From positions 682,001 through 746,000 of the forward strand of contig JBLDXI010000036.1 in NCBI GenBank assembly GCA_047495785.1: a stretch of DNA of 64,000 nucleotides, written 5' to 3'. Positions 4,012-30,177 of this stretch are shown piece after piece; the first letter of the stretch is position 1; the number at the start of each line of letters is the position of its first letter. The notes below the pieces were generated by a model that was given only the letters and a program-made list of their open reading frames with translations, searched no databases and was not told where the DNA came from. The DNA is from Lepidodermella squamata (Eukaryota > Animalia > Gastrotricha). A program made the position numbers and the translations under genes.

Positions 4012-4560
4012 ATTGAAAATCGTAGAAGCGGCATTCGCCAGTATTGCAATCTTTCGCCATTGGCCGACCTTTTTGATGAAATTCAGCCTAGGCATGGCTA
4101 CAGCCTCTCCCGATATGTGGGTGCGATAGAAATTAGGAAGCATTACCCGATTGGCGGTGAAAAAGGGAGATAGACAAGCTGAGGAAATAGCGACCAAATT
4201 CAAATGATGGGCAATTTGTGCCAGAGATTTGCAACCAGCAGTGTAGCCTCCAGCGAAAACGATGGGCGATTTTACTGAGCTATTTGCTGCTGGCTTCCTG
4301 TAGAATTCTATCACTCGCTGGGTTAGCAGAACACTTCCCGGCCCTTCGTCCTGGTTGAAGGCGACCAACTCGTAGCTAGGCAAGATATCGTTTCTTTTGT
4401 TGACCATTTCAATCATCAGCTCTTGAACATGTGGACAAATGTCACTAGCGGGGTCGGCGACCTGAACTGAGCTTGTGCCGAAAAATATCTCCAATTTGGT
4501 ACTTTCCCCATTTACCAAATATACCATTAATAAAACTGCTCGAAAAAATGAAGACTTCAT
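4012..4560 (-). pseudogene. 3'-truncated GABA-B-like class C GPCR fragment (copy 1; signal peptide plus start of Venus flytrap domain)
   Basis: About 183 aa are clearly paralogous to the downstream receptors (DPASDICPHVQ, RNDILPSYEL, GGYTAGCKSLAQ, WRKIAILANA). Similarity stops after STIFN. Confidence 0.85.
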
Positions 4561-7305: not shown

Positions 7306-8019
7306 TTTCGTGGCTCTGAGACCACGCCGTTATGACGCCGTGGTGCTCATACGGCAGCAGCAACGCAACAAGCCGACTTCCACGCGTCAACTTTCGGCCA
7401 CGACTGTCGAGGAAAACAACGTTAAAGCCTAATTGGTTAGGACCGAGTCTAATGCATCTTTACGAGGCCTTCACGGCAAAATTTCGTAAGACGGCATGAA
7501 CTTTGGCTACGGTTAACGGTTTGGTTCGTATCACGTGGGCTAGTATGATGTGATGTTCTTGTATGATGTGAGCGCTGGGTGAAGTGTGAACTCGCGAAAC
7601 TCGCGCCAATCGCGAAGCAAGAAGCAATTATTTTCCGTCCGTGCGCAAAGGTTTACCCGGCAATTTAAGGTTCCAGTGGCTAGTGGTTGGAATGACTTCT
7701 TTTTTGGCTCTGGAGTGATGTAGGCGGGTAGTCTTGGTTTGCACATTGCATTATATAGGCGTGTACGACGAGGCTTTCCTTTTCCTCGACATTCGGAGCC
7801 GCAATTCGGCGCGTAGAATGTAGGCGTGTACGTAGGCGTGTAGTCACATGGGTGCACAAGCAGTCACAAGCAGTGCACATGGGTGCATGGTGCATACATA
7901 CAAACAAAGAAACAAAGATGTCCACGACACGAATGGCGACAGTACGGGGGTTCCCCCGGCATATATCTCTCCTATCACTAAATTAACCGCTTTGATAGCA
8001 TAAAAATGCAGAGCATAAC

Positions 8020-9752: not shown

Positions 9753-10028
9753 TTATTCGGAATCAATATCAGAAAAGAGCAGAGGCGAAGGATGTGGTTG
9801 TGGTGGTGGAGTAACCGTCTCGTCGCACGAATAGTGATTAGGATCGTAGAATAGACATAGCATTGCCATTATTTCGTCACAGCGTAGTAGCAAATCTTGG
9901 CCGCGGCAGGTTAGGTTGCGACGAATGAGAGGCTCAGGCTGATCCATTAGGGTTATGAGCTCCTCACATTGCAGTTGTAAGTCTTGAACGCGATGAATAA
10001 CGTCCCGAAGTAAAAGTTGATCCGACAT
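9753..10028 (-). CDS. Small Polinton protein (91 aa) with two LxCxE motifs; candidate Rb/pocket-protein binder
   Basis: LQCEE and LRCDE lie in an internal repeat (RVQDLQLQCEELITLM / RGQDLLLRCDEIMAML), followed by YSCDE, a Pro-rich stretch and an acidic SDIDSE tail. AATAAA downstream on the - strand at ~9720. Confidence 0.65.
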   Translation of the reverse strand: MSDQLLLRDVIHRVQDLQLQCEELITLMDQPEPLIRRNLTCRGQDLLLRCDEIMAMLCLFYDPNHYSCDETVTPPPQPHPSPLLFSDIDSE

Positions 10029-10492: not shown

Positions 10493-10915
10493 CTATGGAG
10501 CTGAGAATCCCAAATTGGAAAACCGAGATGTTACAAATGATTTAACATCGAAAGGTTCCACGACAGGAGACGGATCCGCAGGCGCAGGCGTAGTCGCAGG
10601 GGGAGCGGGAGCTACGGGGGCAGGCTTGGGAACCTCGGCAGTCAAAGCCGGCTTGATAAAACGCACGTAGTTTTGCTTCAGCCTCTCGAGCTCGCCAAAT
10701 ACATGATTGTAGTCTCGAGCAGTCTGGGAATGAACATCCGGCTGATTCAACATCTCAGTCATCTGACCTTCGAGCTCCTCAACCTTGTCGTAAAACGGGC
10801 CATCAAACAGCTTCTGCTTGGTGACAGCACGACGTTGCAGAGAGGAAGCTGCGGTCTTTGTCGAAACAGGTGTATCTTGCATGAGCACGAGCTTGCGGCT
10901 AAACTTTTCAACCAT
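10493..10915 (-). CDS. Uncharacterised Polinton protein (140 aa; helical N-terminus, Pro-rich linker)
   Basis: ATG at 10915 overlaps the end of the upstream core gene. SRKLVLM start resembles ORFs I recall following the core protein in other Polintons. Confidence 0.6.
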   Translation of the reverse strand: MVEKFSRKLVLMQDTPVSTKTAASSLQRRAVTKQKLFDGPFYDKVEELEGQMTEMLNQPDVHSQTARDYNHVFGELERLKQNYVRFIKPALTAEVPKPAPVAPAPPATTPAPADPSPVVEPFDVKSFVTSRFSNLGFSAP

Positions 10916-11288
10916 CACGTTTACGGAGCGACAGAATACCGTCAATAACCGAAGGTAGGATGCTACCAGCAGCTGAAATAAGGAGAGGAATAAGCGGACC
11001 GTTTCCGTGCTGAATAAGAACGGATCGACTACTCTCGGGCGTCTTGACCTTGGAAACGCGGTCAATGGTTGCTTTATATGATCGGAGCTTCTTAACGGTT
11101 TTTGAGTCTGCCGATAAATTTTGACGAATTAAATTCAAACAGATTTCCGTTAGCAAAACAATGACACGTGTCGGGGCCAATGCAAGTAACCGTCGTCGCT
11201 GTCCGGGAGGTGCCTGGGTAAGCAAGCGTAAGAAATCAAGAGTGCGCCGCCTCTTTGAAGTCACCGAATGAGCCACTTTTCGAACCAT
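10908..11288 (-). CDS. Basic Polinton virion core / membrane-active protein with a protease-cleavage-like QxGxG motif
   Basis: Pattern LxxL...R..LL..A...LTEICLNL...KLRSYK...QHGNGPLIPLL followed by an amphipathic tail is typical of small Polinton core proteins. TATATAAA ~40 bp upstream. Confidence 0.75.
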   Translation of the reverse strand: MVRKVAHSVTSKRRRTLDFLRLLTQAPPGQRRRLLALAPTRVIVLLTEICLNLIRQNLSADSKTVKKLRSYKATIDRVSKVKTPESSRSVLIQHGNGPLIPLLISAAGSILPSVIDGILSLRKRDG

Positions 11289-11458
11289 TAGTAGATGGTA
11301 ATAAAAATAAAACGGTCACTAGAAACGGTTTATATAGTAATAAATCAGCTAACGGTTCGAACCAATCCATGTGTATAAATATATGACTTGAATGCAATCG
11401 AGATATCAATTCCTACAATTGTATTTCATTGGTAGTAGTAGCATAACATATTGGGAAC

Positions 11459-12130
11459 ATGGATACCTCCGTGCAGGAAACTTTGATGCAAGACGATGGT
11501 CCTGCCGCCTTCTCGAAACGCGTCGATGGCCCTCTGCTTCCGCCACGTGGTTCTAGTGGTGCTGGCGACTCAAATCGGAGTTATGGATCCCCTCATGAAC
11601 AGCAGCTCACTCGATTTCAACGAGCGCACTACACATTGGCTAAACAGTCGGTAACGAGCTGTAAAGATCCCAACTTTGTCATTCTGCGCAGAAATCGCGA
11701 CGAGAACAGCACCCTTGATCTCGAGTTCTTTGTTGGTCATGCAATCGAAATGAACAAGCTCTTCTTCACACGAAAAGGATTATATTTATCGGTTCGAGAA
11801 CTGCGAATGATTTACGAGAGCATGCAGGTGGAAGGTGGATGGGTTGACAAGATAAAGCAAGAGCTGAAACAGCCGCGCGGAAAGTTTTGTAATGGACCTA
11901 AACATCTCATCGGAGGGATGATTCATGCAAGAGTTTTCCGCCCAACTGGATCACAGCGCGCCTATGTTGATATCCGCCTTTACGTGAACAATCGAAACAA
12001 TCAAGCCGGACAACAAGAGCCACAAGAAAATTCGAGTGACTTTTCGCAGGACGGATTTTGCGCATCAGATGTGGTCTTTCTGGAGCTCCAGCACATGATT
12101 TACTACATGCTGTCGAACTTGAACGAATAG
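11459..12130 (+). CDS. Tandem PC4/Sub1-like ssDNA-binding / coactivator-like protein
   Basis: YVDIRLY and TRKGLYLSVREL resemble the PC4 motifs YVDIREY and KKGISL, one in each half. Divergent orientation; AATAAA at ~12211. Confidence 0.55.
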   Translation: MDTSVQETLMQDDGPAAFSKRVDGPLLPPRGSSGAGDSNRSYGSPHEQQLTRFQRAHYTLAKQSVTSCKDPNFVILRRNRDENSTLDLEFFVGHAIEMNKLFFTRKGLYLSVRELRMIYESMQVEGGWVDKIKQELKQPRGKFCNGPKHLIGGMIHARVFRPTGSQRAYVDIRLYVNNRNNQAGQQEPQENSSDFSQDGFCASDVVFLELQHMIYYMLSNLNE

Positions 12131-12259
12131 AGCAATCAAGCAAGCTACTTCGCGCGCCCAAACTAACATTGATCATATATCCGCGTGTAAATATGCTTCT
12201 CGAGTAATACAATAAAGTGAAAATCTGTGAAAAGTTCAGTCTTTATTAGCATGTCAATT

Positions 12260-13066
12260 TTACATAGTCAATGGCAGGTTCAGATTTGGTACATCATCCA
12301 CTTTAACAAAGACGTTGCCGGTGCGGGTACCGATAAAATTTCGAAATCGAAGTAACGGCGGGCATGACGCTGTGTTATCAATGAGAAGGTAACCAAATGG
12401 AACGCTTGTAGCAAGGTCGAAACTCTCTGAATCATCAAAGAAAAAGTTCAAATTAAAATGATGAGCAAAGCAAGGATCCTACCTTGCAAGAACCGCCAAT
12501 CCTTGGGCATAATCTGACGTGCCAGGTGAGAAAATTGTGTCATATCGCAGGGTGAACGGAACACAATAATGTAGCGAGCGTTCAGAGTCAGGTCGCGAGA
12601 GAACTTACCTCTAAGTAAAGAAGAACAAAATGAGATAATAAGGAACGATTAAAGGGAGAGATAGTGAAAACCTGGGGAAGAGGTTATTTTGGGCCATGAT
12701 AACACTGATCTGGCTGTGATGAGATCCTCGGTAAAACAATTCAGCAACCTGTTTCATATCTTTTGCATCGCTGTAGTTATCGTCAAATATTATTAGTTTG
12801 TGAGCCCCTCCTAAATAGTCAGCTTCATGAAATGATCCAATGTCGTCGCGAAATTCGATGGGAACGCCACGAGCAAGCAACACCTGCTGACTGAGCTCAG
12901 CATGTCCAGGTTGAGCAATTCCTCTGAACCAAACTATTCTATCCAAAGGTTTGTCGAAAGATTCGGGATAAAGCAGAATGTCTTTAATGAGTGTCGATTT
13001 TCCACCCTGACTCGGGGCGGAAAGGATTATAGTACAAGGTGATTGAAAAGCCGTTGTGAAGCTCAT
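12260..13066 (-). CDS. ATPase: A32/FtsK-like genome packaging ATPase, 3 exons (introns 12611-12671, 12427-12482)
   Basis: Walker A APSQGGKST, Walker B IIFDD. Splicing restores QNNLFPR|GKFSRDLTLNARY...LARQ...FLQ|ESFDLATSVPFGYLLID. Confidence 0.93.
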
Positions 13067-13084: not shown

Positions 13085-13588
13085 TCAAAATCGCTTCTTT
13101 TTATAGTGATCTCTCACAAAGCTAAGAACAAAGGCGTCATTCTGCTGCCTAGAATTTCTGCCGTGATTAGTGATTAAGGATACAATATTAGGTAAGGAAA
13201 CACCACGTGCCGACTGATGAAGGAACACCAAGCAGTATAAGCCACAGTGAATGCTGTCGTAAGCCTGAAGGCTACGGTGGTTATGTGATCGCAACTTTCG
13301 CCCACAGTTCGCCATATTACTTATGAAATGCTCGATCCTAACAGACCAGCTACTGGATTGTTGGCCGTAAGAGTCCATGAAGATGATCGATGAATCGGTA
13401 ACATGAAGAGCAATCCAATGTGACCCTGCTGACGAGCTGGGCGAGGCGTTCACAATCAGGAACAGAGGCTTTTGCGACGAGCCAAGATTTTCATAATAGG
13501 CAAGCGAGTCGCAAGGAATAGTAGCGAAAATGCCTTGGTTAATAACTGGGTCCGAGGCAAGAAAAGCGGTTAATTGATTCGTATTCAT
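13085..13588 (-). CDS. PRO: Adenain/Ulp1-like cysteine protease (virion maturation)
   Basis: GSHWIAL, FMDSYG and LQAYDSIHCGLYC give the His/Asp/Gln/Cys catalytic set. Confidence 0.93.
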   Translation of the reverse strand: MNTNQLTAFLASDPVINQGIFATIPCDSLAYYENLGSSQKPLFLIVNASPSSSAGSHWIALHVTDSSIIFMDSYGQQSSSWSVRIEHFISNMANCGRKLRSHNHRSLQAYDSIHCGLYCLVFLHQSARGVSLPNIVSLITNHGRNSRQQNDAFVLSFVRDHYKKKRF

Positions 13589-14928
13589 CAGAAAAAGTTG
13601 TGAATGACAGTGCGGTTCGACTGGAGCTCCATCACCCGGTGTTTATACTGCATTACGGCAATAAGAGTTGCCGGGTTCGGCAGCTTTTTGCCGAAAACTA
13701 GGTTAATTGCCATCTGACCCGTGGTAATAAGGCGGCCATTCGGGTCGTTGTCCAGTGACAGCTGAAATGCGAGCACTGTGCCACCACTTTTAACAAAATC
13801 GCCCCGACTAATATTGACGCATTTCGAATTCGAATCGGGAAAAATGGTGTCTTGCATTAGTTGATAAGCCCTAGCGCAATCTAAAGTACCAAAGTTCATG
13901 GCCAATGGAGTGCCACCCACAGCTTTCCCATCAATTGTTATCGTTATATTTTGAAGGTCAAAATGTTGAAAGTTGAAAGGGTTGGCTGTAGCCGCTCCCT
14001 GAAGAGCTGAATCCTCGACCATAACTAAATTTGGAATGATTTAAATTAAACATGAATTCCGAGCCGAAAACTTACCTAAAATGAGCTTTTCCGGAATCAC
14101 ACCCATGACTACATTGTTGAGATGGATTGATGTCATGTTAGTGGGCAAATTGAAAGGTTTGGCCAGGGTATGGTTGAAAATGTACTTTGCAGGGGTTTCA
14201 ACTAGTGCCCTCTCCAGAGCCATCGTTACCTCAGGAACAACTTCGACACGTTTCACCAACAAAACAGCTTCCAGTAGTTTGAACTCGTAATCTTTCAGAT
14301 CATCGGACATCAAGAAAAAATCCGGTTTATGCATAGTTAACTTGATTCGAACACTCGTTTGGGGGATCAAATATTTCTCCTGATTGAAGAAGTCCGTTTG
14401 AATTTTCCCGCATAACGAGATAACGGGGTTCTTTTCTATATCATTGACAAGGCTTAGTCGCTGCACGAAGCCGGAATTAGGTGCCTTCAACTGGTCGAAA
14501 GATCCGAATGAGTCTGGATGCCACGCAACGTTACTCAACTTGGCATTTTGCACATCTTCCGAGGCCGAAAGTAAATGCTCAATGTACGCAGAAATCGGAT
14601 GTAACGAGGTGTTTTGCGTTATCAGATACTCATTCACGTAAACGTGGCAATCGGAAAACATTGAATTTAAAAAATTGTTAACAGGCGCACAACAAAAGTT
14701 GTTCTTTGTCATGCCGGCAGCAGTTGAAGTGATTGAGGCTTTGATGGAAAGGTAAGTATGACTGAGGTCGGTGAATGCTTCCGATGCGGGGATCGTAAAG
14801 GTGATTTGTTGCGCGCCCGAAATGGATGCCATGGGATGGCACTCCGTGGTGTGAGTACCAGTGACCTCATTGGTGACAGGCGGGGAAGCGAAAATAGCCA
14901 ACTCTGCCCTAATTGCGTGATCAGACAT
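13588..14928 (-). CDS. MCP: Major capsid protein (double jelly-roll), 429 aa, 2 exons (intron 14025-14075)
   Basis: ELAIF, FTDLSHTYL, PVNNFLNSMFS, DFFNQEKYLIP. Splicing gives IPEKLILVMVEDSALQG...NPFNFQHF. TATATATAAA ~40 bp upstream. Confidence 0.93.
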
Positions 14929-14983
14929 TGTAAATTCTCGGAATAATGTTTTATTAATAATTCATCGCTTTATATATATCAAA

Positions 14984-15397
14984 TCAGAACAGAATGCGCG
15001 TAGATTTAGCTGGCCTTTTCCCACGCTTAAATTTTCGTTTGCCGGAACCGTACTGACGAGCTAGGTGACTGATTGCATCCTTTCCTACTGTTTTTAGGCC
15101 TTCCATACCTCGATTCTTGAAAACTTCCGCCATGTTATATTCAGATCCAGCTTGCTGCCGCTCAGAAATATCCGAAGCAATGTTTGTTGCAGTTGAAGCA
15201 GCTGAAGTGAAAAGTTTAGGCAGAAAAGGTATTAAAGTGTGACGAATAAAGCTGCGGATATATGTTCCCAGTCCATTTCCAACTTGAGGCATCAATACGA
15301 TGGATGGTCCACTAAACGGTTGTATACCGCTTCCGCCTCGTCCAGTTTGGCTAATGAACCAGTTGTAGTAGGCATCGGAAGAAATGGGTGCTCGCAT
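14984..15397 (-). CDS. Polinton core protein with repeated QxGxG cleavage-like motifs and a basic C-terminus
   Basis: QTGRGG, QVGNGLG followed by an amphipathic helix, QYGSGKRKFKRGKR. Lies between mCP and MCP. Confidence 0.78.
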   Translation of the reverse strand: MRAPISSDAYYNWFISQTGRGGSGIQPFSGPSIVLMPQVGNGLGTYIRSFIRHTLIPFLPKLFTSAASTATNIASDISERQQAGSEYNMAEVFKNRGMEGLKTVGKDAISHLARQYGSGKRKFKRGKRPAKSTRILF

Positions 15398-15400
15398 TGC

Positions 15401-16523
15401 TTAGCGACGAATGGGCCGAATATGGATGGTGACAAGAGATTTGCCTTCCTTATATACAACTTTCTGTCCCGAGTCTAGGCACATCAAAATTGAAATAGTA
15501 TCCACAAATTGAGTGCGAACAGGGTGATAAAACGGCATTGAGCCAGCAAAACTGGTCATGCTGTATTTTGTGGCGGAAGCTGAACCCGAAGCTGGAAATA
15601 CGCGGAGTAATGGTACAAATTTGTCACCACATATTGTGTGTTCAATCAAATCGCTATAGCAATAAACCAAAGGGCTGTGAAAATGGATCTGTGGCTTGAA
15701 CTCGGAAAAAATTGGAATCTCATCGTACGTCGGGCGGTAATTTACTGCAGCTACCAACTCTGATTCACCACTTTCATTTTTCCGATGCATGTTTAGTCTC
15801 AACTTGCCATCGTCACAGTCCTGGTAAGTCGGAATCTTACCGTGGGCCATTGGCATCTTTGAGCCTTCCTTCCCCGGCAAAATAAATCGCAACATGTGAC
15901 TAAACAGCGATAAAAACTCGCGCTCATGGCGTATAGAGTCTTCCAACTCAAGATCCTCGTCATGTGGCGGAATATTCAGCAAAAGAGTCCCACGCTCAAA
16001 CCCTAGTATTTGAGCAATAAACTCGGGTAAATAGAGACCACAGCCAGGTTTTAAGTTGAATCTAATACGACTCCTTGATTCCTCATGACTCAAAGTCATG
16101 CCGCTCCAATCGGGGAATTCCGCTGTCATATGATTCAGAAAGTCGTCCATGGTTTCGTAAATTCTGCCGCCAACAGTACATTGCGAAAATTCTTCCGGTG
16201 TGTCAAACGGTGAATCATTCAAATTCGCACGCTCGAACCATGACGTTTTGAACAAATAGAAATGAGATTTCTTAATGGAAATCACTTGAGAAGGTGTGCA
16301 GACTTCCAAAAGCGCCGCTTCATGGCTCCCTATGCATCCCAAATCTATGAAAATCGAAACATGGTAAGAACAAAATAATAATATCTGAATCCGCCATACC
16401 GATAATTTCCGGGAGCTTGACTTTAAATTCTGCCGCATTATTGTTGCTAAAAAGATCCATTGACGCGTGAGAAGGAAGTGTCAAAATGAGATCTTTGCCG
16501 TAATAATTATTTGCTGGAAGCAT
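15401..16523 (-). CDS. mCP: Minor capsid protein (penton, single jelly-roll) with a large central insertion, 2 exons (intron 16345-16399)
   Basis: LTLPSHASMDLFSNN...FKVKLPEII|DL...EAALLEV at the N-terminus; YCYSDLIE...GDKFVPLLR...VTIHIRP at the C-terminus. Confidence 0.88.
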
Positions 16524-16728
16524 TCGTAGTTGTCGATTGATAGATTAGCGGATAAAAAAACCACGTCAATATCAGCAAAATTAAGGTAAGGGTAACAGTC
16601 GTAATTTGTTTCGTTCGTTTAGACAAGGAACTGGCAAAGCTTGGGGATGGTAGCAGCGGCGCAGGCAAAATTAGTGGTCTCTGAATGCGAGACAGGTCAG
16701 GAGTCGAAAGTGAGTGCATTTTCCCCAA
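16507..16728 (-). CDS. Small putative single-pass membrane protein
   Basis: 73-aa frame between INT and mCP with a strongly hydrophobic stretch (VTLTLILLILTWFFYPLIY); true start uncertain. Confidence 0.4.
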   Translation of the reverse strand: MGKMHSLSTPDLSRIQRPLILPAPLLPSPSFASSLSKRTKQITTVTLTLILLILTWFFYPLIYQSTTTNASSK

Positions 16729-16746
16729 CCTGATTTACTATCCTTT

Positions 16747-17796
16747 TTATATTCTTTGAAGCTCGAAATTATAGAACACACGATTCAACTGTTTTCCTTG
16801 CCCCTCCGGTTTCACTCGATAGGCAACAGTCGAATTTCCATTTTGAGGAATAACTTTTGATACGAGATAGATTTTCTCAGAAAAAGTAGGGTTCTTCACA
16901 CGATTCTTGAAAGTTGAACGTTTCTCCATAATACGAACGCGATCACCAACCTTGAATTGAACCCGAACTGGTCGAATATTCGAGAATATAGTTTCAAAGG
17001 CCAGGAAATTATCAAAATGCTCATCATAAACAGTCATTAGTCCGGGCTCTGAAAGTTCCATGTTCAGTTTGGGAGAATGGGCCCAAAGATCATTCGGACT
17101 CATTTGAGTAGTTGAATTTGGACAAGAGTTGATTGAGTGAAGAAAATCACCCAATTTATCGATAAATTTCTTGGTATTGTTCGCCATCAGGTAACGAACA
17201 ATCCGCATGCGAATATTGCGGATAAAAGTTTCGATTGAGCCGACCTTTTTCGTTGACTCGGTTAGGTAAAAATGCGAATGCAATTCGTTTTCAATGTAGT
17301 TTCGAACTCGCTTGTCCTTGAATTCTGACCCTTTGTCAGTAATGAACTGATGTGGAACTAAGCCAACGTCTACCATTATCTCCTTCAATGCAGATAGAAC
17401 CACCGCCCCAGTTTTATTACGAAGAACTTTTAGCCAACATTTGCGTGTGTATAAATCTTTTACACATAAGATGTATTTTTGACGCCTATTGTTAAATTGG
17501 TACTCCTTGGTAATTTCCAGCAAATCAGCAGCAAAGCAGGAACCCTTGGAGTAAACAGCCACTCGGCGGAAAAGCTTTCTATTTCGCGTTGAAGCTTGTT
17601 TAAACCGAGAATAAGCCGGTTGTTTAGAGAGCCATTCTCTGACTGACTTGTACGTGATCAAAGGATTATTTGGATATTTTGAAACTGCAGCATCATATAA
17701 AATTTTTATAGAACGGAAACTGCTAGGAAGCTCAGGCGAGTAGTACAATGGGTGTAGAATATCATCAAGCTCAACAATTTCGACATCGGAAGTCAT
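16747..17796 (-). CDS. INT: Retroviral-like (RVE) DDE integrase, 349 aa
   Basis: YYSP...WL..Q.AY N-terminus, FAADL, TDKGSEF, IETFIRNIR, FKVGDRVRI, FYNFELQ. Consistent with the 6-bp TSD. Confidence 0.95.
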   Translation of the reverse strand: MTSDVEIVELDDILHPLYYSPELPSSFRSIKILYDAAVSKYPNNPLITYKSVREWLSKQPAYSRFKQASTRNRKLFRRVAVYSKGSCFAADLLEITKEYQFNNRRQKYILCVKDLYTRKCWLKVLRNKTGAVVLSALKEIMVDVGLVPHQFITDKGSEFKDKRVRNYIENELHSHFYLTESTKKVGSIETFIRNIRMRIVRYLMANNTKKFIDKLGDFLHSINSCPNSTTQMSPNDLWAHSPKLNMELSEPGLMTVYDEHFDNFLAFETIFSNIRPVRVQFKVGDRVRIMEKRSTFKNRVKNPTFSEKIYLVSKVIPQNGNSTVAYRVKPEGQGKQLNRVFYNFELQRI

Positions 17797-17818
17797 TATC
17801 ACAAGTAAAAATGAATTT

Positions 17819-20800
17819 TTATTTTTTATAACCGAATGGGATGGTTTCAAAGGTTGCAAAGTTCGAGATTACTCGTTTTTGAAATTTGAAACTAAGTGTT
17901 TTTATAGTATTTTCAATGGCAACTTTTGCATACGGCTTGCAGTGGAATCGGCGCCAGACTTGTTGTTCAAGCTCTAGTCGTGCCTTCTCACCACCGCAGT
18001 TGACAGATTTCAGGATGTTCATAAAGCATTGGAAATTCGTACGCTTTTTGAGCGCGGAAGTCAATTGAAATCCTTTCATCCTGATGCATGTGTTGCCCTG
18101 GGATGTTTCGTACATGTAGGTTTTTGGGGCGAGTCCGATAAACCTGAAATATTATTCCACGAAAAGCTGTTCAATTATAAAAACAAAAAAATTGACTCAC
18201 TTGGTAATATGTTCATTTGCATTTAATTCCGGTTTCCATTCCCCAAGAAAATTGCCAACATGCAACGGCTGAGGTCCTCCAGGTCGCTCGACGTAAATGC
18301 AGGAGTCTGCGAAGATATGGTGAGATTTAGCGTCAGCAGATCCTACCCTGAGCTTCCCCTGAGCCTCAGCTACCCTAACCTGAGCTTCCCCTGAGCCTCA
18401 GCTACCCTAACCTGAGCTTCCCCTGAGCCTCAGCTACCTTAACCTGAGCATCCCCTGAGCCTCAGCTACCTTAACCTGAGCATCCCCTGAGCCTCAGCTA
18501 CCTTAACCTGAGCATCCCCTGAGCCTCAGCTACCTTAATCTGAGCATCCCCTGAGCCTCAGCTACCTTAACCTGAGCTTCAGCGACCCGTCTTCGAGCTG
18601 TTCTTACCTGTGTCGGTGTACAGAACACAGTCCTGTAGGCGATGCAGCTGGCGGTACAGGTAAACTCTCGCCGCTGAGGTGACGTAAGCGGCCAAGACCA
18701 CGTTGGAAACGGGTAAAGTTGGCTGCAATTCCAGCTGACTGGTGTGAGTTACGCGTAGTCGCTCCTCCGACCGGCACCCTTCATCATCGCAGGGTGGAAT
18801 CACAGCGATATCGTGGATTGTGATACCAGGTCTGCGAATCAAGCTCAGTAGCTCGGCCGGAGTATCGATATACGTAACGTCGAGACCATCTGGCCGTAGT
18901 CCGAGCTTACCATAAGCTAAATTCAATGTTGAATGGACCCGATGTTTATTTTTCTATCGAAAAAATGTACCTGTATTGAGCAGCAACTTCCCCAGTTGCC
19001 TTTTCGCATTATTGACCGTACCCAACTGACCTGGATCCAACTCTATTCCATAGAGTTCCTTGCATTTTTCGACGTAGCCTTCGACATCGTTTCCTGAGTA
19101 TCCGCTCGCTTGCAATTTTATCTGAAAATTAAAAATTAGAAACTCATTTTCCAATCCGATTTGACAGTTTACCTTCAGGCTGTCATGAATGAACGATCTG
19201 AAGAGCTCCGTTGACTTCTTGTCGTAATGATAGGATTCATAAAACCGAATCACTTCGCACTGGTTCAGATCCAATGCTAGGCGAAGTTCTGTTGTGGTAA
19301 CGAAGATTCGGTAGCATCGCTCGTCATCGGAGTGAGTACACTCGGCCTGATGATTCATCTCCATACAGGATCTACAGTTGCCTACGATATAATTGTTTAA
19401 TTTTCGTGAGATTTGAGTTAAAAATTTATTACTTACCGAACTTCAGGTACCCTTGAGAGGTGCGATATGCCAATAATGGGATGAAAACATCTCTTCGCGG
19501 CAAGATCAACACGTGCGTTAACCCGAAAGTCGGTGTAATTGTTGAGTAGAAATGAGCGCGAAGTTCCAAGTGGTTATTTCGCAGTTTCAAAACGTCCTCA
19601 TTGACCGGTCCATAAGGTAAGAAAACGTCATAGTAACCATCCTCTTGAGATCCGATCTTGCCACTCAAAATTGCTGGGTAGAGGCTTTTTAAGGTCATAT
19701 TTACACACGAGTTTTTTTTTTTTAAATTATCATTAATTTAACCTATTTACGTCGAGATACTTGATCTTCTGGTCGGGTGACGAGGAAACGTCGTAAAACA
19801 GGCAAAAATTTTCGGTGCGGCCACCCATGAAACTATCACGTGGTAACGCCCTAGAATTCTCAGTTCTCAGAATAAGAGACATTTTAAAAATTACACCTTA
19901 ATTCTTACCTGTCAACAATGTCCAGGGTGCGTTCAATCTCCCCGGTCAGTACCGCATCGTCGCTCATGGCTTTCTTGGCTTCGCACGCCCAAATGCTGGT
20001 CAGATTGTATCCTGCAGCGCGAATTGCACCATCGCGTTCTTCTGTATCCTTGAATAAGAACCCAAATGATACTTTCCGGACAGGATGAATTTTATTGGCC
20101 GCTTCAGGAAAGCACCTGGTAACAATTCAGAAATGTTTTGATTTTAGCTTGTAAGTGTTTTTTTTTTGACATACTTCATGCAGCCATGGCAAAAACAGCC
20201 GTGGTACATGTACACCTCGAGAATCTTGTTGTTTGCGTCGTAAACAACCCCGTCAGGGAGGAATCTTCGGAACTTGGAATTCTCAGTTATACACAACTCC
20301 CCATTTGAGTTGGCTGCATGTTGAATGCGTTTCCCGGTTTTTCGAGCCACGAACTCGAAGTAAACAATAGATTCCCGCGAGTAATTCGCCCTAAAAATTC
20401 CCATGACTTACATTTTATTTGTTTTTCAACTTCAGGATTAATTCATACCCCTTCGCGTAGCCAGTGTTTGGAACAAGGTGAATAGGTGTCGCAGGATCCA
20501 GGTAGAGGAAGCGCCAAATGAAATTCGAAAGAGATGCCAGGGTTCGAACCTCTGAAAGTTATACGAATGAAAATAAAGATCCAGGCTGATTTTATAATCA
20601 TACCCCATATAGCGTCGATGCCTTCCGGACACTTGTCGTCTCGGGTTGTGAATTCTCGCAACATCGATCGGAACTTGATTACAGCTCTATGCAGCAAATT
20701 TACATCGGACTGGCAGTAATTAATCAGCTGATTACGAAGGTGGAACTTTTGATGCTGATTTTCAGCTAAGAATTGTTGCAACTCAGCGAGTTTTGAATCC

Positions 20801-23094
20801 GAAAGCCGGTTTGTGTCATAGTCATCCAAGGTTGGGAAGTCTCGCTCGTTATCGGAAAGGAAATTCGCTGATGTCAGCAATTTATAGGGAAAAAATTCCT
20901 TTCCAGTTGCATTCGCATCCTCATCCAGACCGAAGCAGTGGAAAAGCGAAGCCAACGATGACATGGAGAGGAGGTAAAAGTCTCGAAATACGATTGCTTT
21001 TTTCTCAACAGATAGCTCGATAATTGTGTTATTTTTGTAAATATGTTCGAACTGATAATCGTGCTGTTGTAACCATTTCAGGACCATAAAATTATCGAAT
21101 CTATAGCGAGATTAAATTAAATTTCCGAAATCTAACTCTTCGATTTTCCCACCTTGAACCATTATGAGAGAGAAGTAAAATTCCAGAATACTTTTCTCGC
21201 AGCAAAAATTTCATAAACTGGTTTACACAGGTGGAATCCGCACCAGTTGAAACGAAGATCTGCTGGCGCGGGTCGTCACCAGTACACGATTTGGGACACG
21301 TTGCGGTGACAAGCATGTGTTGACACGAGTCACAAAACATGTTCAACACTATCACGACTGGCACTAGTTCTCCGGTTTCCAACTGAATTGTTTCGGTATC
21401 CCAAGCTCCGGCAATTCGCAGAGGATCTTTGCGAAGCCTGCCTGGTTGAATGACACAGCTGTGTTCCTCGTCAGCCTCCTCCGAGCTTATTGGCCCGTTA
21501 CAAGTTCGACACGTCCGAGATTGACCTATAGTCACATTGTAGCAAAAAATTAAGATGGATTTTTTCCCATTTCATCAACTCACAGTTATGTTTTCCCTTT
21601 TGCGCTATCCCAATTTTCCTACCGCACTTGCCGCACATGAAGTAGGACTGGCAAATGGTCGCAGCTCCGGGTGTTTCAGGTGTCTGGTGATTCATGAAAC
21701 ACTGGGCCCCGTGGAAAAATAAGCCACAACTCCCGCATAACATTGTTCGTTCGTTCGAGTCACGACATGTTGCGCCGGCTCGCTGGCACCTGTTGCACTT
21801 AAAACGGCACGTGTGCTGCAGGTTGTTTTTCTTGTGCAACATGAAACATCGCGGGCACATCATCTTCTCCCCAGAAATAGTGCTAATGCCTGTTTCATTT
21901 TTTAGGAATGAATTTCAAATTATGCATTTTATATATTTCTCCTACTTGTTAATCCAACATAATGTCCCACGCTTCGATCGTACCGCCCACTTTCGCGATG
22001 TGATGCCAAGGCTCTGTTGTTGATATAACCGATCAAAATTTTTCGCTCATCGGCAATTGTGAGTCCTGCTTCCGGATGTACAGCCATCGTTTGCTTATCC
22101 ATGAAGTTGTAAATAACACCTGTTTATTTCCAAAACTTTTTATCGAATTTTAGTTTGTTTAAATTAATTATTGCCTCGATAGGGTAAGCCAATCGTATCA
22201 ATAACCCGCTTGAATTCGTCAAGACCATATGCCATTTGATTAGGTTGGATTCCCGCGGCATTCATGAGTTTCAGTGCTAGTTCGCCCTGATATGCTTTGA
22301 TTGCAGCCCTTTCCAGATTCGCTAGTTCGGATGTTGACATGCGGTCTTTCGAAAATCCTGGCCGTAGTCTGTCATAGTCGCCGTGAGGTTGGCAGCCCGG
22401 CCGGGGTTGTTTGTGATCACGATATAACAGAGAATGTGCGATTGACCTGAAGAGACAGTGATTATCAGCATCATTTTCCACTGGAAGGACTTCATTGTGA
22501 CCCATTATGAAGTCAACCATTGTTTCCTCAAGTCGGCGTCGTTTACCACCCTTGCCACCGTAGCCTTGCTCGCCATCTTCCAGTTCACCCACTGCAATTC
22601 TATAGATGTTGTAGCTCCAGCCTAATTTTAATAATGAAAATCATTCCAAGTTCCAGTAATATTAAATCGAACCGTTGTTCATGGCTATTGAAAGTCTAGA
22701 CTGCATCACCGAGTTTATCTCGTCCATGATCATAGCACCAGTCAATTCCTGTACTTGAAGGTATTTCGTATTTACTGGAAAATTCAAGCTGGGGTGGAAA
22801 AGTTCAACCCGAACGTAATCCCTAATTTTCAGTTAAAATGTTTCATTTTTACTCTTAAATAACGAGTTCCTACCTTGGATGGAAAGAGTTTCGCAATTTC
22901 TCTACCAAACCTTCGAATTGCGAATTAATTTTCGATAAAAGTTCCAGTATTTCCAAGCCGCTTTCATCATCCTCATCGGCGTCGTCTTCAAATCCAAACC
23001 CTATCTGATCTGAAGGATCGATCGCTTGCGAGGAATATTTGAAAACGTCCATCTTGAATCGCGGAGAATAGCAGAAAAACCCGTGAAAATCCAT
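17819..23094 (-). CDS. pPolB: Protein-primed family B DNA polymerase (~1382 aa) with N-terminal OTU-like domain, Zn fingers and Vsr-like insertion; 17 exons
   Basis: Introns: 22822-22873, 22622-22672, 22120-22174 (GC-AG), 21890-21945, 21526-21583, 21101-21152, 20552-20603, 20391-20448, 20116-20174, 19851-19908, 19685-19742, 19382-19436, 19122-19172, 18917-18970, 18307-18607, 18144-18200. The spliced frame (4149 nt) gives DTET, HNGSRFD, YCQSDV, FMGGRTE, DVNSLYP, KLLLNTAYGKLG, YTDTDS, APKTY and TIPFGY. Start codon is tentative. Confidence 0.93.
18346..18580. repeat. 32-bp minisatellite (~7 copies) inside a pPolB intron
   Basis: Unit ccctgagcctcagctacc(c/t)taacctgagc(t/a)tc starts at 18357, 18389, 18421, 18453, 18485, 18517 and 18549. 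Confidence 0.9.
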
Positions 23095-24461
23095 ATTTTC
23101 ACTAATGAAGATGGAAAATAGTTGTCCGATTTTCACGAATAATGATAATAAATTGGGTTCGGTTAAAAACTCATAGGGATATAATGTTCATTTGAAAACT
23201 GTCAAGTTTCATTCCTCGAGAACGTTAGCTTATTTAAATGACTTTTCAACGGTTTACTCGTTTCCGAATGATGTCTCCAAATTCATATTTTTATTGCTTA
23301 TTTAGCAACTGTTTCTGAATTTTTATTGTTGATCAGCACGCGTTGTAATAAAAAAGCGACCCGATTTCAAGTGTTTCTCAATTTTTATTACAATATCCGC
23401 ACATTAAATCACGTACAATCGGGTTGCTTGAAAACTTTTATTACTTAACGGCGCACCATATTGACACATGTCATCGGGCAGCGTCTAAAAAAAAAAATAC
23501 AATGAATTTTGATTGATTTATGTCTTTAAGAACTTACACTTTTCCGGATCCTGTTCCATATATGATCTGAATGAATGAAATGGAAATTTAGCTATTTTGA
23601 ATTAAATGTAGTCATGAAAAATCATACCTGAGGATCCCATCGATTTCCAGTGTGTGTAAAACGGTCTATTTCTAATTTCTATGAATATCTTCGTTCGAGC
23701 AAACTGCGACGGAATGTGATGATTCCGTCAACATTACAGGCATTGGCGAAACAGTACAACGATGAACTTGAATTGTGGATAACTGCTCCAGATTAGAATT
23801 GATTCCCCAGAGTTTCATTGCGAAATCTTAATTTTTATTACAGCAGTTCTTCTTTCCATAGCATCGGAACAGCCTAAGATCATAGACGCTAAATTTAAGA
23901 ATAAATGTACGCAGTTTCAATGGCATGCTACTACTACATAGTAGCATGGACGTAGGCTATTAACATTCAGTCGAGTGTGTGTCGCGTCCAATTTTTATTT
24001 CTCATATAGTATCGCATATAATATAGTTTCAAGCTGCGTCAGTGGTGTAGTTAAATCTTTAATGCCAGTCACTATTATCCACCCCGACGAAAATACATTC
24101 ACGCATGTTGAACCATTGGTTACATTTTTACACCGCAGTGCCGGAAATCTAGTATTATCATATATCACTCGCGCACAGAGTTTGGCAACACGAGCTATTA
24201 AGGCCTCAGTTATGTTTATTCCAGTTGGCATCTTTCCCGCAAGAGTACTGTTCAGACTATCGGTCTGTCACTTTTTTCCGGTCTTTGCAAGACCAGACCT
24301 TTTTGCCCTTGAATAAGGCCAAGACCCAGACCGAAATTACAACCAGGTCTTTAAACCAAGACCAAAGACCAAAGACCGGAATAATAATTACTCGTTTCTT
24401 TTATTTCCTTGATTAAATTCTCTTCTCCGCGTTCAAGTAAACGTTTTCAGAAATTTTTAAA

Positions 24462-27131
24462 TTAACATTCAGAAGTGAGATGTTTATTGCCACGGCACAC
24501 CATTGAACGGCAGATGGTGTCAGGTTTAAGCCTCAAACGGCGAGGCGATACGGAATGGCTCGATAATGAAAAGATTCTTTCGGCCCATGCGCTACTTGCG
24601 CAAATTGCGAAGATTCGCCGCACTAGCAACGATAAATTTGGAAAGCGGCGATGATGAGATTTCCAAAAAGCTAGGCCACAAGGTAGATCGACGTCGTGTA
24701 CGCTGAGCAGGTCGAGATAGGAAGCAACCTCGCTTCTTAGGGTCGAATTTGGCACTTGCTTTTTATCATGAGCCGTTACTTGTTTTGACATGAAATTAGT
24801 GAGAAACTTCGGCGTAGTCGATGAAACAATAGCAGACGCCGCAGCTTGCGGTGACGAGGAAGCAGCAGAATTGCCATTTAACTGAAACGAATCGAAAAAT
24901 GCACTTCATCCAAATTAATATTAATAAAAGTTATCAACCTCGCTCAGATATTCGTTGAGGCAAAAGCATTCCTTGACCATAATGCTGGTGATAATGCTTG
25001 TAAACTTTTCGACGTCAACATAATTTGGCAGAAATTTCAAGCCATAAGCCGGGTCCAGAACTGACGCTAAGATAAAATATGGATCTGAATAGGTTCGGCT
25101 AAGGTCCGAGTTCGTTTCCTCGCCCTCGACTTCTCCAGCTGATATCTCTGCCATGCGATCAGGATTTATTAGATTCTTCATTATTCCACCAAATCGTCGC
25201 GAACAAGACTCACGTAACGTCGAAGCCAGCTAAAAAAATTTAATTATTTTTTTTTAATTTAATTCCGATTTTTATTTTTATTATTATTTATTTATCTTTG
25301 AATTTTTGAGAACATTTTTAAATTAAATTACAAGTCTTGTCATTAAACATTTTTTAAACGCTTTGAATTTTCGAAGTTTCCAAAACAATTTTCTAAATTT
25401 TCTAAAACCTTTGCTTACTTGCGAAATATCGCTGAATTTCGATTTGAACTCGTAGAAGTGATCACGAAGTGCCAACACAGACGGTACAACGCAGCTCATG
25501 GTCGCGTCATTTCTTTGCACTAGCAGCGTGACTTCGTCGACAGGTGACAGTAAACAAACAAAGTCCTGCAATTTAGCGCGCTCTTGTTGACTCAGCTCGA
25601 GTTCCTTCCGCTTAATTTTGAGGAGACCCGACTTCAGCTTATTCGTGTCCACTTTCAACAGCACTTTCACGAGACGCAGCTGGCCATTCCATCGAGTCGC
25701 ATTCTTTTGCGGAACAACGGGTTGTCCATCCAAAACTTCCGCCAACGGCCCGCTTGTATGCATTAGAGATGTTATCGAATCACACTTACCCAACAGAGCT
25801 TTCAATTCAGCTGACATGGCTTTTAATCCATCGCAAACAGTCAATTGAAAGGTATGACCAAAACAGCTAATCCGATTAAGGGAGGCGGTTTCAACGAAGG
25901 CATCTAGCTCGTTCTCGGACACCTCGATATCATTATTAGCCTCATCGTCGTCTTCGTCATCTGCTTCATACGATCGCGAGTCATCTCCCAGCTCGGACTC
26001 AGTGGCCAATTTACCATTCAGCATGACGCGGAAAGCTTTCAGCACATTAGACCCATTATCAGTTGTTGCCCTTGAATTAAAATTAAATTTAAAATTTAAT
26101 AATTTAATTCGACATTTATTTCAAAATTTATTTCAAAATTTATTTCAAAATTTAATTCAAAATTTATTTCAAAATTTAATTCAAAATTTATTTCAAAATT
26201 TAATTCAAAATTTATTTCAAAATTTAATTCAAAATTTATTTCAAAATTCAATTCAAAATTTATTTCAAAATTTAATTCAAAATTTAATTTAAAATTTAGC
26301 ACGTGTTCACCTTGCGATATCTTCGTTGGTTATTCCCATTTCCGCCAGAATTTCCTTGTAGGTATCAGCAATGTTCGTCCCAGTGTGGGATCCCACGACA
26401 TGTTTGAAAGAAATGAGACAGTGTTCGACGTCGAAATCGGAATTAATCATGGTCACATAAAATGCCATGAATGCCCGGAGTCTCCGATCGGTCCATAAAT
26501 CAATCTGACTGGCAGAAAACCCGCGATTTCTTTTCAGCATCGCCTTAATTTTGACCTGCAATTCGTCAACAACAGATTCGATTTCGGTTTTTAGGCCTTC
26601 CGAACCAAGATCACGGTAACGTTGGTCTGCGTCTTTCATCAATTTTCGAAATCGAGGATTTTCGACGATTTGATTAGCAATGCCTGTTTCCACAACTAGA
26701 AGTGCGATGTCACGGTTTAGCTGCCGTTGCCTCGGGTCGTTTGGCTTGTATTCTGCCAGGGGTCGAGCAAATTTTCGAATGCTTGATTGCTCGATTTTGG
26801 TGCATAGTCTCGGTTTTCGGTGTGGCAACGTTTTGAAAATTTTGTTGTGAACTCGTTTCAGGTGACGCCGGAAAGAAGAAGACTCAGAATCAGTGATTGC
26901 GACAACTGTGGGTACGCAGTGCTTGCATTCTGCTGTCCACTTATCATCGGACAGTTTCTTCCAATTAGAAAAGTGTTCAAATACCGAGAAGGTCGGGTGG
27001 TCTGAAGAGATAGGAGTTAGAGTTTTATCGAGGGATTCAGCTTCGCTACCAGAATCAGATTCTTCAGATCCGGAGCAGCTTTCAGCACTGGTTAATGCAG
27101 CCAATCGCTTTCTCTTAGCAGGTTTAGGCAT
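24462..27131 (-). CDS. hAT transposase (BED finger, DDE, dimerisation domain), 727 aa, 4 exons (introns 26071-26310, 25230-25418, 24882-24938)
   Basis: WTAECKHC...RRHLKRVH, IDLWTD, TTDNGSN, CFGHTFQL, TRWN, SSAWAERIFS. The frame is open after splicing. Confidence 0.92.
26085..26300. repeat. AT-rich 12-bp minisatellite in hAT intron 1
   Basis: Tandem aaattta(a/t)ttca units. Confidence 0.9.
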
Positions 27132-28025
27132 TGGCTCTCTTGAATGAAAACTGACAATTTAAAAATGACGAAAAATAATGAAATAAATAACTCATACAAA
27201 TTTTTCTGATGAAATTCAGATGTTTATTGACTGCGACCATGCTATTTTCCAACCGAGCAATCTGCGACCAGGCAGATTTAAATAACCGGATGTCTTCATA
27301 GAGTCGTAGCCTTTTGAGAATGAACACGTCCGACTAAATGCATGACCTATTTTTTGTTTTTAATCCTCGTCAATCAAAGTCAAAAACCAGAAAATTAAGA
27401 CCAAAAGACCCAGACAGGCCGAAATTTCCTCTCTGGTCTTGGGCAGACCGAAGACCACCAAATTGACCCAGTCTTGGTCTGGTCTTAGTCTTACTCCGAA
27501 GACCAGGCCGATAGTCTGGTACTGTTTACCAGGCGAATCTTAGATACCTTTATGGCAGTGTTGTCTTGTCGCTGTAGTTTCCTTGCCAGTTTTCGCCCAT
27601 AAATTTTTGCCAGTTCAGGATTCTTCGTGAAAAGCACGACTTTCCCGTTTTTAAATAGCAAAGCGTTGAAGTGCGGCTCTTTAATGACGAGAGCATTTGG
27701 AAACTTTTGTTTAAGCTCAACCATTTTGAAGAGGTGAATAATTTTCCGCAGATCAAAATGTACCCCCAGCGAGAGTGTGGAAACAACATTTTGCACGGTA
27801 ACATCAATTTCAAGCATTTAATATTCCAAGAAAAATGAGAAAATGAGGTGACATGACGAATTTACTTGCTTTTTATTACATTGTATAAATTATAAATGGT
27901 GCCGAGATGCAACGCTCAGTTTTCAAAAAACATTTTTGGCGAAATCTTCCAAATTTATATCAACTGTAAAATACCTTGTCATATTCTTACGCATCATTTT
28001 ACTTGGCAACTATACTTATCCTGAA

Positions 28026-28295
28026 ATGGCTAATCCTCAAATAGCTGAAATTTTCTTTCAACTATTTGTAAACCTGTAAGTATTTAATGTCAAAAAATTC
28101 AACATACCTTATATTTTTCTTTCTTTCTTCAGCTACGACGAGGCAGGTCAAATGTATGATCACTTGCAGAACTCAGTAGCCAGCTACAACACTATCATCC
28201 AGATATTATGGGACATTCACGGATTACTCGTACCTCATCCTCCTCCACAGCCCCCTAGTCCTCCTGTGGAGGAGGAGGAAAATGCCAACTGGTGA
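28026..28295 (+). CDS. Small spliced Polinton ORF (70 aa; intron 28076-28132) with a Pro-rich/acidic tail
   Basis: Strong GTAAGT donor and polypyrimidine-CAG acceptor. Product MANPQIAEIFFQLFVNLYDEAG...PHPPPQPPSPPVEEEENANW. Not in the ORF track. Confidence 0.6.
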
Positions 28296-28464
28296 CCTGT
28301 ATAAAAAAAAAAAATAATCAACATTATTACAATATTATTAAACATTATATTAACCTTTGTATTTCGAAATCGCTATCGAAATCTAATCGAAGTAAATGTA
28401 AAGATTGCATTCCATGGCTTTTCTCAATCCAAGGATACAAATAGAAAAATGCAGTCGAGTTTTA

Positions 28465-28829: not shown

Positions 28830-30006
28830 GCGAGTGACCGTTGGAATTATGGAAAATTCAAATTTTGACTAGGGTTTTGGCTGGAATATTGTGTGTGTGT
28901 CAAGGTCATAATTTGGCGGGAAAATAGTTTTTGGCGGGAAAATCAATCGATATCGATTAGGGTTAGTGTTTAGGATTAGGGTTAAGCCCTAGGAATAGTG
29001 TTAAGGATTAGGGTTAAGCCCTAGGAATAGTGTTAAGGATTAGGGTTAGGGTTACGCCTATTTTGGCGGGAAATTAAATCAAAATCAATCAATATCGGTT
29101 GATCGATATCGGTTATCGGCTAGGGTTAGGGATTATCGATTAGGTTTAGGATTAGGGTTAAGCACTAGGAATAGTGTTAAGGATTAGGGTTAAGCCCTAG
29201 GAATAGTGTTAAGGATTAGGGTTAGGGTTACGCCTATTTTGGCGGGAAATTAAATCAAAATCAATCAATATCGGTTGATCGATATCGGTTATCGGCTAGG
29301 GTTAGGGATTATCGATTAGGGTTAGGGTTAAGGATTAGGGTTAAGCCCTAGGAATAGTGTTAAGGATTAGGGTTAAGCCCTAGGAATAGTGTTAAGGATT
29401 AGGGTTAGGGTTACGCCTATTTTGGCGGGAAATTAATTCAAAATCAATCAATATCGGTTGATCGATATCGGTTATCGGCTAGGGTTAGGGATTATCGATT
29501 AGGGTTAGGGTTAAGCATTAGGGTTAAGCCCTAGGAATAGTGTTAAGGATTAGGGTTAAGCCCTAGGAATAGTGTTAAGGATTAGGGTTAGGGTTACGCC
29601 TATTTTGGCGGGAAATTAAATCAAAATCAATCAATATCGGTTGATCGATATCGGTTATCGGCTAGGGTTAGGGATTATCGATTAGGGTTAGGGTTAAGGA
29701 TTAGGGTTAAGCCCTAGGAATAGTGTTAAGGATTAGGGTTAAGCCCTAGGAATAGTGTTAAGGATTAGGGTTAGGGTTACGCCTATTTTGGCGGGAAATT
29801 AATTCAAAATCAATCAATATCGGTTGATCGATATCGGTTATCGGCTAGGGTTAGGGATTATCGATTAGGGTTAGGGTTAGGGTTAGGGTTAAGCCCTAGG
29901 CTTAGGGTTAGGGTTAGGGTTAGGGTTAGGGTTAGCTCAAGGTCAAGGTCGCGCGGGAAAAATTCAAATCGGAAAAACCGTTAACTTTTCCTCCCCCCCT
30001 ACTACT
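28830..30006 (-). repeat. Right terminal inverted repeat: five ~183-bp higher-order units of TTAGGG variants, then a (TTAGGG)n run and a ~70-bp terminal cap
   Basis: acgcctattttggcgggaaa recurs at 29054, 29230, 29413, 29596 and 29779. Near-pure TTAGGG at ~29865-29935. Confidence 0.93.
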
Positions 30007-30177
30007 CATAACATTGGCTTCGTACTTCAAGACACAGAAAAATTGCCACTGCCATCCTACGCTTCGAGGGATTGGATAAGGTTTCGCGCTGTGCATTTAC
30101 TCGGAGCCAATTAGCATTTGTTTATAATAAAAGCGTGCTCAATCGACGAAAGTCATCTTGCAAAAAATTGTCAGACG

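Follow-up and report, generated by a model that had tools for sequence, protein, structure and literature searches.

The TATA-binding proteins (TBPs) of cells and their paralogues (PF00352; yeast 1ytb, human 1cdw) form a two-repeat saddle with a core of ~180 amino acids (aa), four DNA-intercalating phenylalanines, two asparagines, P191 and a basic helix 2 (residue numbers throughout are those of yeast TBP). Among viral forms, the herpesvirus TBPs (ORF24 of KSHV, the Kaposi's sarcoma-associated herpesvirus, Epstein–Barr virus BcRF1 and human cytomegalovirus UL87) carry the same phenylalanines and asparagines, are polar at the V161 and L205 positions (N520 and S560 in ORF24; PMC12529657, Table 1) and work with host RNA polymerase II. 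ORF24 lacks the acidic TFIIB residues yet is an activator (PMC12529657); it is a 752-aa protein with a polymerase-binding N-terminal and a DNA-binding C-terminal domain, and acts in a six-protein complex on TATT boxes. As described by Ravarani et al. (PMC7221094), viral TBPs keep the DNA-contacting positions, vary at the TFIIB loop and usually lose the basic patch; most viruses with a TBP, as in the type of the nucleocytoplasmic large DNA viruses, pair it with a viral TFIIB and have lost the basic signature of the first repeat. In nimaviruses, wsv303 is listed as a TATA-binding protein and as a nimaviral core gene (PMC10871703), and the legend to Fig. 5 of Starrett et al. 2021 (PMC8502044; preprint 10.1101/697771) labels a TBP-like gene in MELD viruses with an adintovirus-like DNA polymerase B (PolB). 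Here we describe a TBP-like gene in a complete Polinton/Maverick element of the gastrotrich Lepidodermella squamata, within a window of 64,000 nucleotides (contig JBLDXI010000036.1, positions 682,001 to 746,000; the window is the whole stretch analysed, and all coordinates below are window positions).

This is a real, selected gene whose product is a member of the TBP fold family, and it is neither a canonical TBP, nor a herpesvirus-type system, nor a giant-virus TBP–TFIIB pair. As in the case labelled by Starrett et al., it lies in a midsize linear double-stranded DNA element of the Polinton/adintovirus type, so a viral TBP in such elements is not wholly new; by contrast, that legend offers a label only, in a section on non-animal datasets, and carries no mechanism, promoters or expression. 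The term TBP was not found in the supplement of Starrett et al. (one file), nor the term Polinton in that of Ravarani et al. (four files), and a literature search over titles and the starts of abstracts, with most subscription papers outside its coverage, returned no study of a Polinton TBP. New here are a degraded TFIIB loop together with a retained basic patch, TATA boxes at 8 of 14 element genes, and a probable RNA in which the gene lies inside an intron.

The gene occupies 23995–27817 on the minus strand, in two pieces with a hAT transposon between them:

27519–27817, minus strand: 5' piece of the TBP-like gene (first repeat to the start of the second), ATG at 27817, Pfam TBP 44.1 bits
24253–27518, minus strand: intact autonomous hAT within the TBP-like gene, with zf-BED and hAT dimerisation domains
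23995–24252, minus strand: 3' piece of the TBP-like gene (second repeat and stop), stop at 23995, Pfam TBP 26.1 bits

The hAT is bounded by 11-bp terminal repeats (CAGACTATCGG) and an 8-bp duplication (GTACTGTT) at 24245–24252 and 27519–27526. Both TBP pieces are in phase 0 at this duplication and together comprise 182 codons, which bears out the proposal of the initial annotation that removing 24253–27518 with one copy of the duplication yields a 182-aa open reading frame (ORF). The transposase reads as an open frame of 727 or of 756 codons, depending on which of two splice solutions is taken; with the transposon thus intact, the insertion is probably young. Because it truncates the protein after the first repeat, this Polinton copy would need TBP protein from sibling copies. 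The hAT ends were also seen as loose ends in other contexts within one sequencing run (X1), and a non-autonomous relative at 45697–46593 (ends 84–86% alike, 8-bp duplication CACGATCA) interrupts a host gene resembling a G protein-coupled receptor (GPCR).

Whole copies of the gene were found in contigs of two runs, X1 and X2, which come from two studies with differing organism codes. The X1 contig (1,130 nt, depth 314) matches the window over 23351–24244 and resumes at 27519, differing from it by 8 letters and 2 gaps; a 285-nt X2 contig likewise passes directly from 24244 to 27519, with 77 nt on its shorter side. X2 is the more independent support, since X1 may be the sample from which the window came. 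The uninterrupted copies for which a search had been proposed thus exist in nature, and the break belongs to this copy and not to the family. Further X1 contigs (depth 61–69) match 10654–12708 and 19946–27760 in patches only (~84%) and so suggest that the sample contains a second, diverged Polinton family. In one of these contigs (depth 61) the patches follow PolB and then take up again at 27714, within the 5' piece of the TBP-like gene, a weak hint of a sibling copy.

Each piece was translated and scanned alone, and each exceeds the curated cut-off of 22.9 bits for Pfam TBP PF00352 (E 1.9e-11 for the 5' piece and 8e-6 for the 3' piece), confirming that both repeats are present. In the Protein Data Bank (PDB), the 5' piece matched TBP chains in 35 of 35 cases and the 3' piece in its ten best matches of 19. 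When the 3' piece was modelled (54-row alignment, pLDDT 85), the model retrieved TBP chains with TM values of up to 0.78 at ~2 Å, none at E < 0.001, and because it was built on a TBP alignment it shows compatibility with TBP only; modelling the 5' piece from its sequence alone gave a poor result (pLDDT 53). The check on the fold, made on the pieces separately by profile and PDB sequence, gave TBP matches for both. BLASTP found no alignment between the 5' and 3' pieces. A search of viral folds with the 3' piece placed giant-virus TBPs and nimavirus wsv303 at the top, none at E < 0.001. A word search for close relatives of the 5' piece gave one candidate and no match, and a full HMMER scan returned 203 matches with E ≤ 0.001; the best 150 of these are generic TBPs at 26–46% identity. 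Viral contigs scanned with four queries (the TBP 5' piece, the integrase, the database protein P0131 and an alignment, A3) yielded no locus, and neither did metagenome contigs scanned with a capsid exon and the same alignment.

Aligned with the canonical core P0004, which is nearly identical to Arabidopsis TBP, the protein is identical at 50 of 174 aligned positions (29%). Highly conserved columns were matched in 16 of 24 cases versus 35 of 150 for the others (Fisher p = 4.7e-5), and conservation this selective at 29% identity points to long purifying selection. The motifs QNVV, KFP, LLF, VNST, RFP and NVF fall on N69, F99, F116, N159, F190 and F207, so that equivalents of the four intercalating phenylalanines and both asparagines are retained, as had been claimed from the sequence. 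The DNA face as a whole retains N69, V71, T73, F99, L114, F116, V122, N159, F190, P191, F207 and T215; it is altered by T112N, T124F, V161T, I194R, V203C and L205N, and gaps stand opposite R105 and G125 (G125 is present in 125 of 127 rows of the alignment described below). The polar residues at 161 and 205 are a likeness to KSHV ORF24. In the second repeat, the TFIIB-contact loop reads D-N-T-R versus E-P-E-L in canonical TBP, with E188 found in 118 of the 127 other rows; the acidic pair for TFIIB/Brf contact (E186, E188) is thus incomplete, an acid (D) being retained at 186. The first-repeat basic patch that serves TFIIA, TAF1, Mot1 and Brf1 is basic at K133, R137, K138, R141 and R145 and has lost N91. 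These patch residues probably correspond to the signature positions of Ravarani et al. The two pieces together hold nothing beyond the core, and there is no N-terminal extension.

A quick tree was built from 128 rows, namely the TBP-like protein and 127 cores from 157 fetched proteins (30 without a full core were dropped). It places the protein on the eukaryote side (SH-aLRT 98) but outside a 69-row group that holds all 33 canonical TBPs, the latter with weak support (80). The branch length is 2.26 and identity to any of the 127 other rows is ≤32%; the description of the protein as far more divergent than a cellular TBP therefore holds, and no recent capture is visible. Three short divergent TBPs of 173–191 aa (P0131, P0156 and P0157) are joined to it as long branches only. 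The cluster of P0131 (173 aa) has a longest contig of 18,784 nt, and its group carries N159T, V161S, T124N and L205S with the E-P-E loop intact; guessing from size, all three are possibly other Polinton TBPs.

The element that carries the gene shows the hallmarks of a Polinton: long terminal inverted repeats, AG...CT ends, a 6-bp target duplication (CATAAC at 8014–8019 and 30007–30012), and Pfam matches to a protein-primed PolB (DNA_pol_B_2), an rve integrase and an adenovirus-type protease (Peptidase_C5). Its size is ~18 kb once the hAT and a long interspersed nuclear element (LINE) fragment in the left repeat are subtracted. Its parts are as follows, with TATA boxes given relative to the predicted gene starts:

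8020–30006, strand not assigned: complete Polinton/Maverick, identical inverted termini AGTAGTAGGGGGGGAG (AGTAGT termini), AG...CT ends
8020–9603, strand not assigned: left terminal inverted repeat, LINE fragment inserted at ~8090–8968
10908–11288, minus strand: 126-aa ORF, intronless, TATATAAA at -48
11459–12130, plus strand: 223-aa ORF, TATAAA at -85
12260–13066, minus strand: putative packaging ATPase, spliced, Walker A-like motif, TATAAAAAG at -39
13085–13588, minus strand: adenovirus-type maturation protease, intronless, Peptidase_C5 E 6.7e-6, TATAAA at -59
13588–14928, minus strand: putative major capsid protein, one intron, TATATATAAAG at -50, no Pfam match
14984–15397, minus strand: 137-aa ORF, intronless, TATATAAG at -59
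15401–16523, minus strand: putative minor capsid protein (penton), no Pfam match
16507–16719, minus strand: 70-aa ORF with a hydrophobic stretch, TATAAAAAG at -32
16747–17796, minus strand: retrovirus-like integrase, intronless, rve E 9.4e-8, TATAAAAA at -34
17819–23094, minus strand: protein-primed PolB, multi-intron, DNA_pol_B_2 E 1.9e-13 for one exon, first exon at 23094 inferred
28026–28295, plus strand: divergent neighbour of the TBP-like gene, predicted at 70 aa, its frame open across a putative intron at 28076–28132
28830–30006, strand not assigned: right terminal inverted repeat, 183-bp array with TTAGGG runs and TTTCCCGCCAAA motifs

The PolB introns were read from the sequence. The frame of the putative major capsid protein, under one splice solution, extends over 430 codons with its sole stop at the end, and the protein shares 31% identity with its nearest database relative. 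The capsid, penton and ATPase are open frames at the places expected for a Polinton, without Pfam matches, and we assign these labels from Polinton gene order and motifs only. The 223-aa ORF, which had neither a Pfam match nor a meaningful PDB match, we presume to be PC4-like by a motif only, an identity that these comparisons did not confirm.

Counted in a window from -90 to -20 that was picked after the sequences had been seen, TATA(A/T)A precedes 8 of 14 predicted element gene starts versus 29 of 592 element ATGs (5%; binomial P ~8e-8), and none of the six host ORF starts; two other windows gave 7/14 and 10/14. A box stands before the genes for the integrase, capsid, protease and ATPase and before the ORFs of 70 (the hydrophobic one), 126, 137 and 223 aa, and several of the boxes fall within the coding end of the upstream gene. 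Those without are PolB, the penton, a 140-aa ORF, a 91-aa ORF, the TBP-like gene, whose nearest box is at -142, and its divergent neighbour, with a box also at about -140. PolB without a box and the TBP-like gene with its box at -142 fit a split into early and late genes. K-mer counts and inspection of upstream regions found no private non-canonical promoter motif. The earlier suggestion of a viral promoter-specificity factor is accordingly weakened as far as it implies a private code, since the boxes are ordinary TATA(A/T)A that host TBP should read too.

X2 contigs also bear on transcription. They show five GT-AG joints on the minus strand, one being a hAT intron, and because the joints have these canonical ends X2 is probably RNA. 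A poly-T loose end lies at 23365, just past a GTAATAAA signal at 23391. The stretch 13812–20451 was left uncovered by X2 contigs, from which no conclusion is drawn. The transcript would comprise the following parts:

28108–28450, minus strand: 5' exons, with an intron at 28297–28354 (X2 joint 28294 to 28353; upper coordinate approximate)
23874–28107, minus strand: inferred alternative intron holding the whole TBP-like ORF, donor AG|GTATGT, acceptor TTAG|G
23365–23873, minus strand: 3' exons downstream of the TBP-like gene, with introns at 23567–23627 and 23485–23537 (CT..AC joints) and poly(A) at 23365

The joint for the large intron runs from 23875 to 28112 in X2 (depth 23, shorter side 27 nt), an offset that appears to come from a 2-nt gap present in another X2 contig; the three short introns (28297–28354, 23567–23627 and 23485–23537) lie outside the coding region. 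The fully spliced RNA (~750 nt, start assumed) has a longest ATG ORF of 48 aa, and further contigs of X2 run unspliced over portions of the coding region, the hAT-free joint included. This pattern, from one study whose contigs show neither strand, start nor level, suggests two isoforms, one coding and one apparently non-coding. Since the long leader would contain 14 upstream ATGs, the coding RNA may start near the -142 box instead.

We consider it about an even chance that the protein is a viral TBP which activates the TATA-box late genes of the Polinton (integrase, capsid, protease and packaging). From the observed fold, phenylalanine/asparagine core, whole copies and TATA boxes, we infer that it binds DNA, which partner it uses and in which direction it acts, as follows. 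A TBP long retained by the element would bind the canonical boxes and help host RNA polymerase II to start, making a very small early-to-late switch. The saddle would bend TATA DNA using a more polar face, as herpesvirus ORF24 does, and, with the TFIIB loop weakened, host factors would be recruited mainly through the first repeat's basic patch on helix 2. The level of TBP may be set by alternative splicing of an RNA driven by the terminal repeat, one intron of which removes the whole coding region.

Several points weigh against an activator. T124F and the gaps at R105 and G125 could, to judge from the residues, weaken DNA binding, and the loop that should contact TFIIB is degraded. Most TBP-bearing viruses encode their own TFIIB as well (PMC7221094), whereas no TFIIB-like Pfam match was found in the element ORF pieces scanned, although a very remote homologue could escape; this, and the mostly retained first-repeat signature, set the Polinton apart from the NCLDV type (that of the nucleocytoplasmic large DNA viruses). 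The protein also lacks the extra polymerase-gripping domain of ORF24, and the upstream boxes are TATA(A/T)A and not TATT. Because the boxes are canonical and host TBP should read them, a viral TBP is not strictly needed, and their count depends on the chosen window and predicted starts noted above. The word and HMMER searches found no close relative of the TBP-like protein. The RNA nature of X2 is a guess; none of the listed runs in which the sequence occurs is recorded as RNA.

A possible, though somewhat unlikely, alternative is a decoy or repressor that occupies TATA boxes, or titrates TFIIA, TAF1, BTAF1/Mot1 and Brf1, without recruiting TFIIB; late genes of the integrated element would then be kept quiet, or TATA-rich host stress and defence genes dampened. 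The surfaces are split as in a dominant-negative protein, with the TFIIB loop degraded and the first-repeat basic patch retained, but the acid at 186 is still there, N91 of the patch is lost, and the three other short TBPs keep E-P-E. Retention of the patch is unusual, viral TBPs usually losing it (Ravarani et al., PMC7221094), and the element ORF pieces scanned gave no TFIIB-like gene by Pfam; the viral TBP-like factors described in the literature consulted are nonetheless activators (ORF24; the herpesvirus late factors and poxvirus VITF-3). The canonical boxes would make competition with host TBP possible, and the gene is covered by probable-RNA contigs alongside the spliced, apparently non-coding isoform. 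Such a pair of coding and non-coding isoforms is reminiscent of latency loci.

A one-protein transcription switch of this ~18-kb integrated virus, in which a bare TBP keeps the patch for host regulators, drops the TFIIB loop, works on ordinary TATA boxes and has its dose set by a spliced, terminal-repeat-driven non-coding RNA with the gene in its intron, is a tentative proposal that we think unlikely in its full form. A role outside polymerase II initiation, either bending of A/T-rich DNA within the terminal repeats in protein-primed replication or packaging, or recruitment of polymerase III through Brf1, appears quite improbable. It would suit a protein whose DNA face is retained while its TFIIB loop is not, and whose gene adjoins the right terminal repeat upstream of PolB; however, the TATA boxes concentrate upstream of protein-coding genes, and the terminal arrays consist of TTAGGG and G/C-rich motifs instead of TATA. 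Brf1 and Brf2 contact the basic patch, but they also contact the acidic loop (PMC7221094), which is degraded here.

The initial annotation had further read the gene as intronless among spliced core genes, a hint of retro-capture. Introns do occur in PolB, the capsid and the ATPase; the integrase, the protease and three further ORFs, however, each read as one unbroken frame, and the RNA surrounding the TBP gene is itself spliced in X2. With five other element genes intronless too, the retro-capture argument is rejected. The candidate of a recent host retrogene was dropped on the same five genes and on the ≤32% identity to any row. That the gene is a passenger, a captured host TBP retrocopy decaying without function, is very improbable, for although its coding region is intron-free and this copy was hit by a transposon, the frame is open, invariant residues are selectively retained despite ~70% divergence, the protein falls outside the group of all 33 canonical TBPs (with the weak support given), other element genes lack introns and whole copies exist.

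The surroundings of the gene show several further features. The divergent 70-aa gene is Pro-rich with an acidic tail and is antisense to the minus-strand RNA, with TATAAA at 27884 and 27891; its exon 2 has no Pfam match, and a predicted complex of exon 2 with the TBP 5' piece scored 0.02. It is one of two small outward-facing ORFs, at 9753–10028 (minus strand) and 28026–28295 (plus strand), each adjoining one terminal repeat, which share a plan of a predicted helical part, a Pro-rich stretch and an acidic tail, without Pfam matches. Both terminal repeats contain TTAGGG/CCCTAA arrays (8970–9450 and 28950–29940; 24 on the left and 41 on the right, 183-bp unit), for which a literature search at listing level found no Polinton precedent. 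The motif TTTCCCGCCAAA occurs three times in the left and seven times in the right repeat (9148–9500 and 29060–29800) and nowhere else in the window, and TATCGAT is enriched in the terminal repeats as well. We take the former to be an E2F-like site and the latter to be DRE-like; such motifs in the termini may tie the Polinton to dividing cells. The LINE fragment at 8090–8968 is 5'-truncated, has an RVT_1 match and is flanked on both sides by GACCTTGACCTTGA, and a 32-bp tandem repeat of ~7 copies lies within a PolB intron (18312–18612). Around the Polinton are at least six long-ORF host genes resembling class C (GABA-B-type) GPCRs, at 3835–4560 and 30178–57300, five of them in tandem and several broken. 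Such flanks point to an animal as the probable host, and TTAGGG repeats agree with many animals.

Little is known of gene control in animal Polintons, or of whether these elements pass through early and late phases as true viruses do. A small TBP with matching boxes reduces the question to one protein and eight short promoters to examine, and offers a natural experiment on which TBP surfaces become dispensable once three polymerases need not be served. If the protein is a decoy, it would be a minimal inhibitor of TATA-dependent transcription; if the one-protein switch is true, Polintons would have a latency/late switch like that of herpesviruses.

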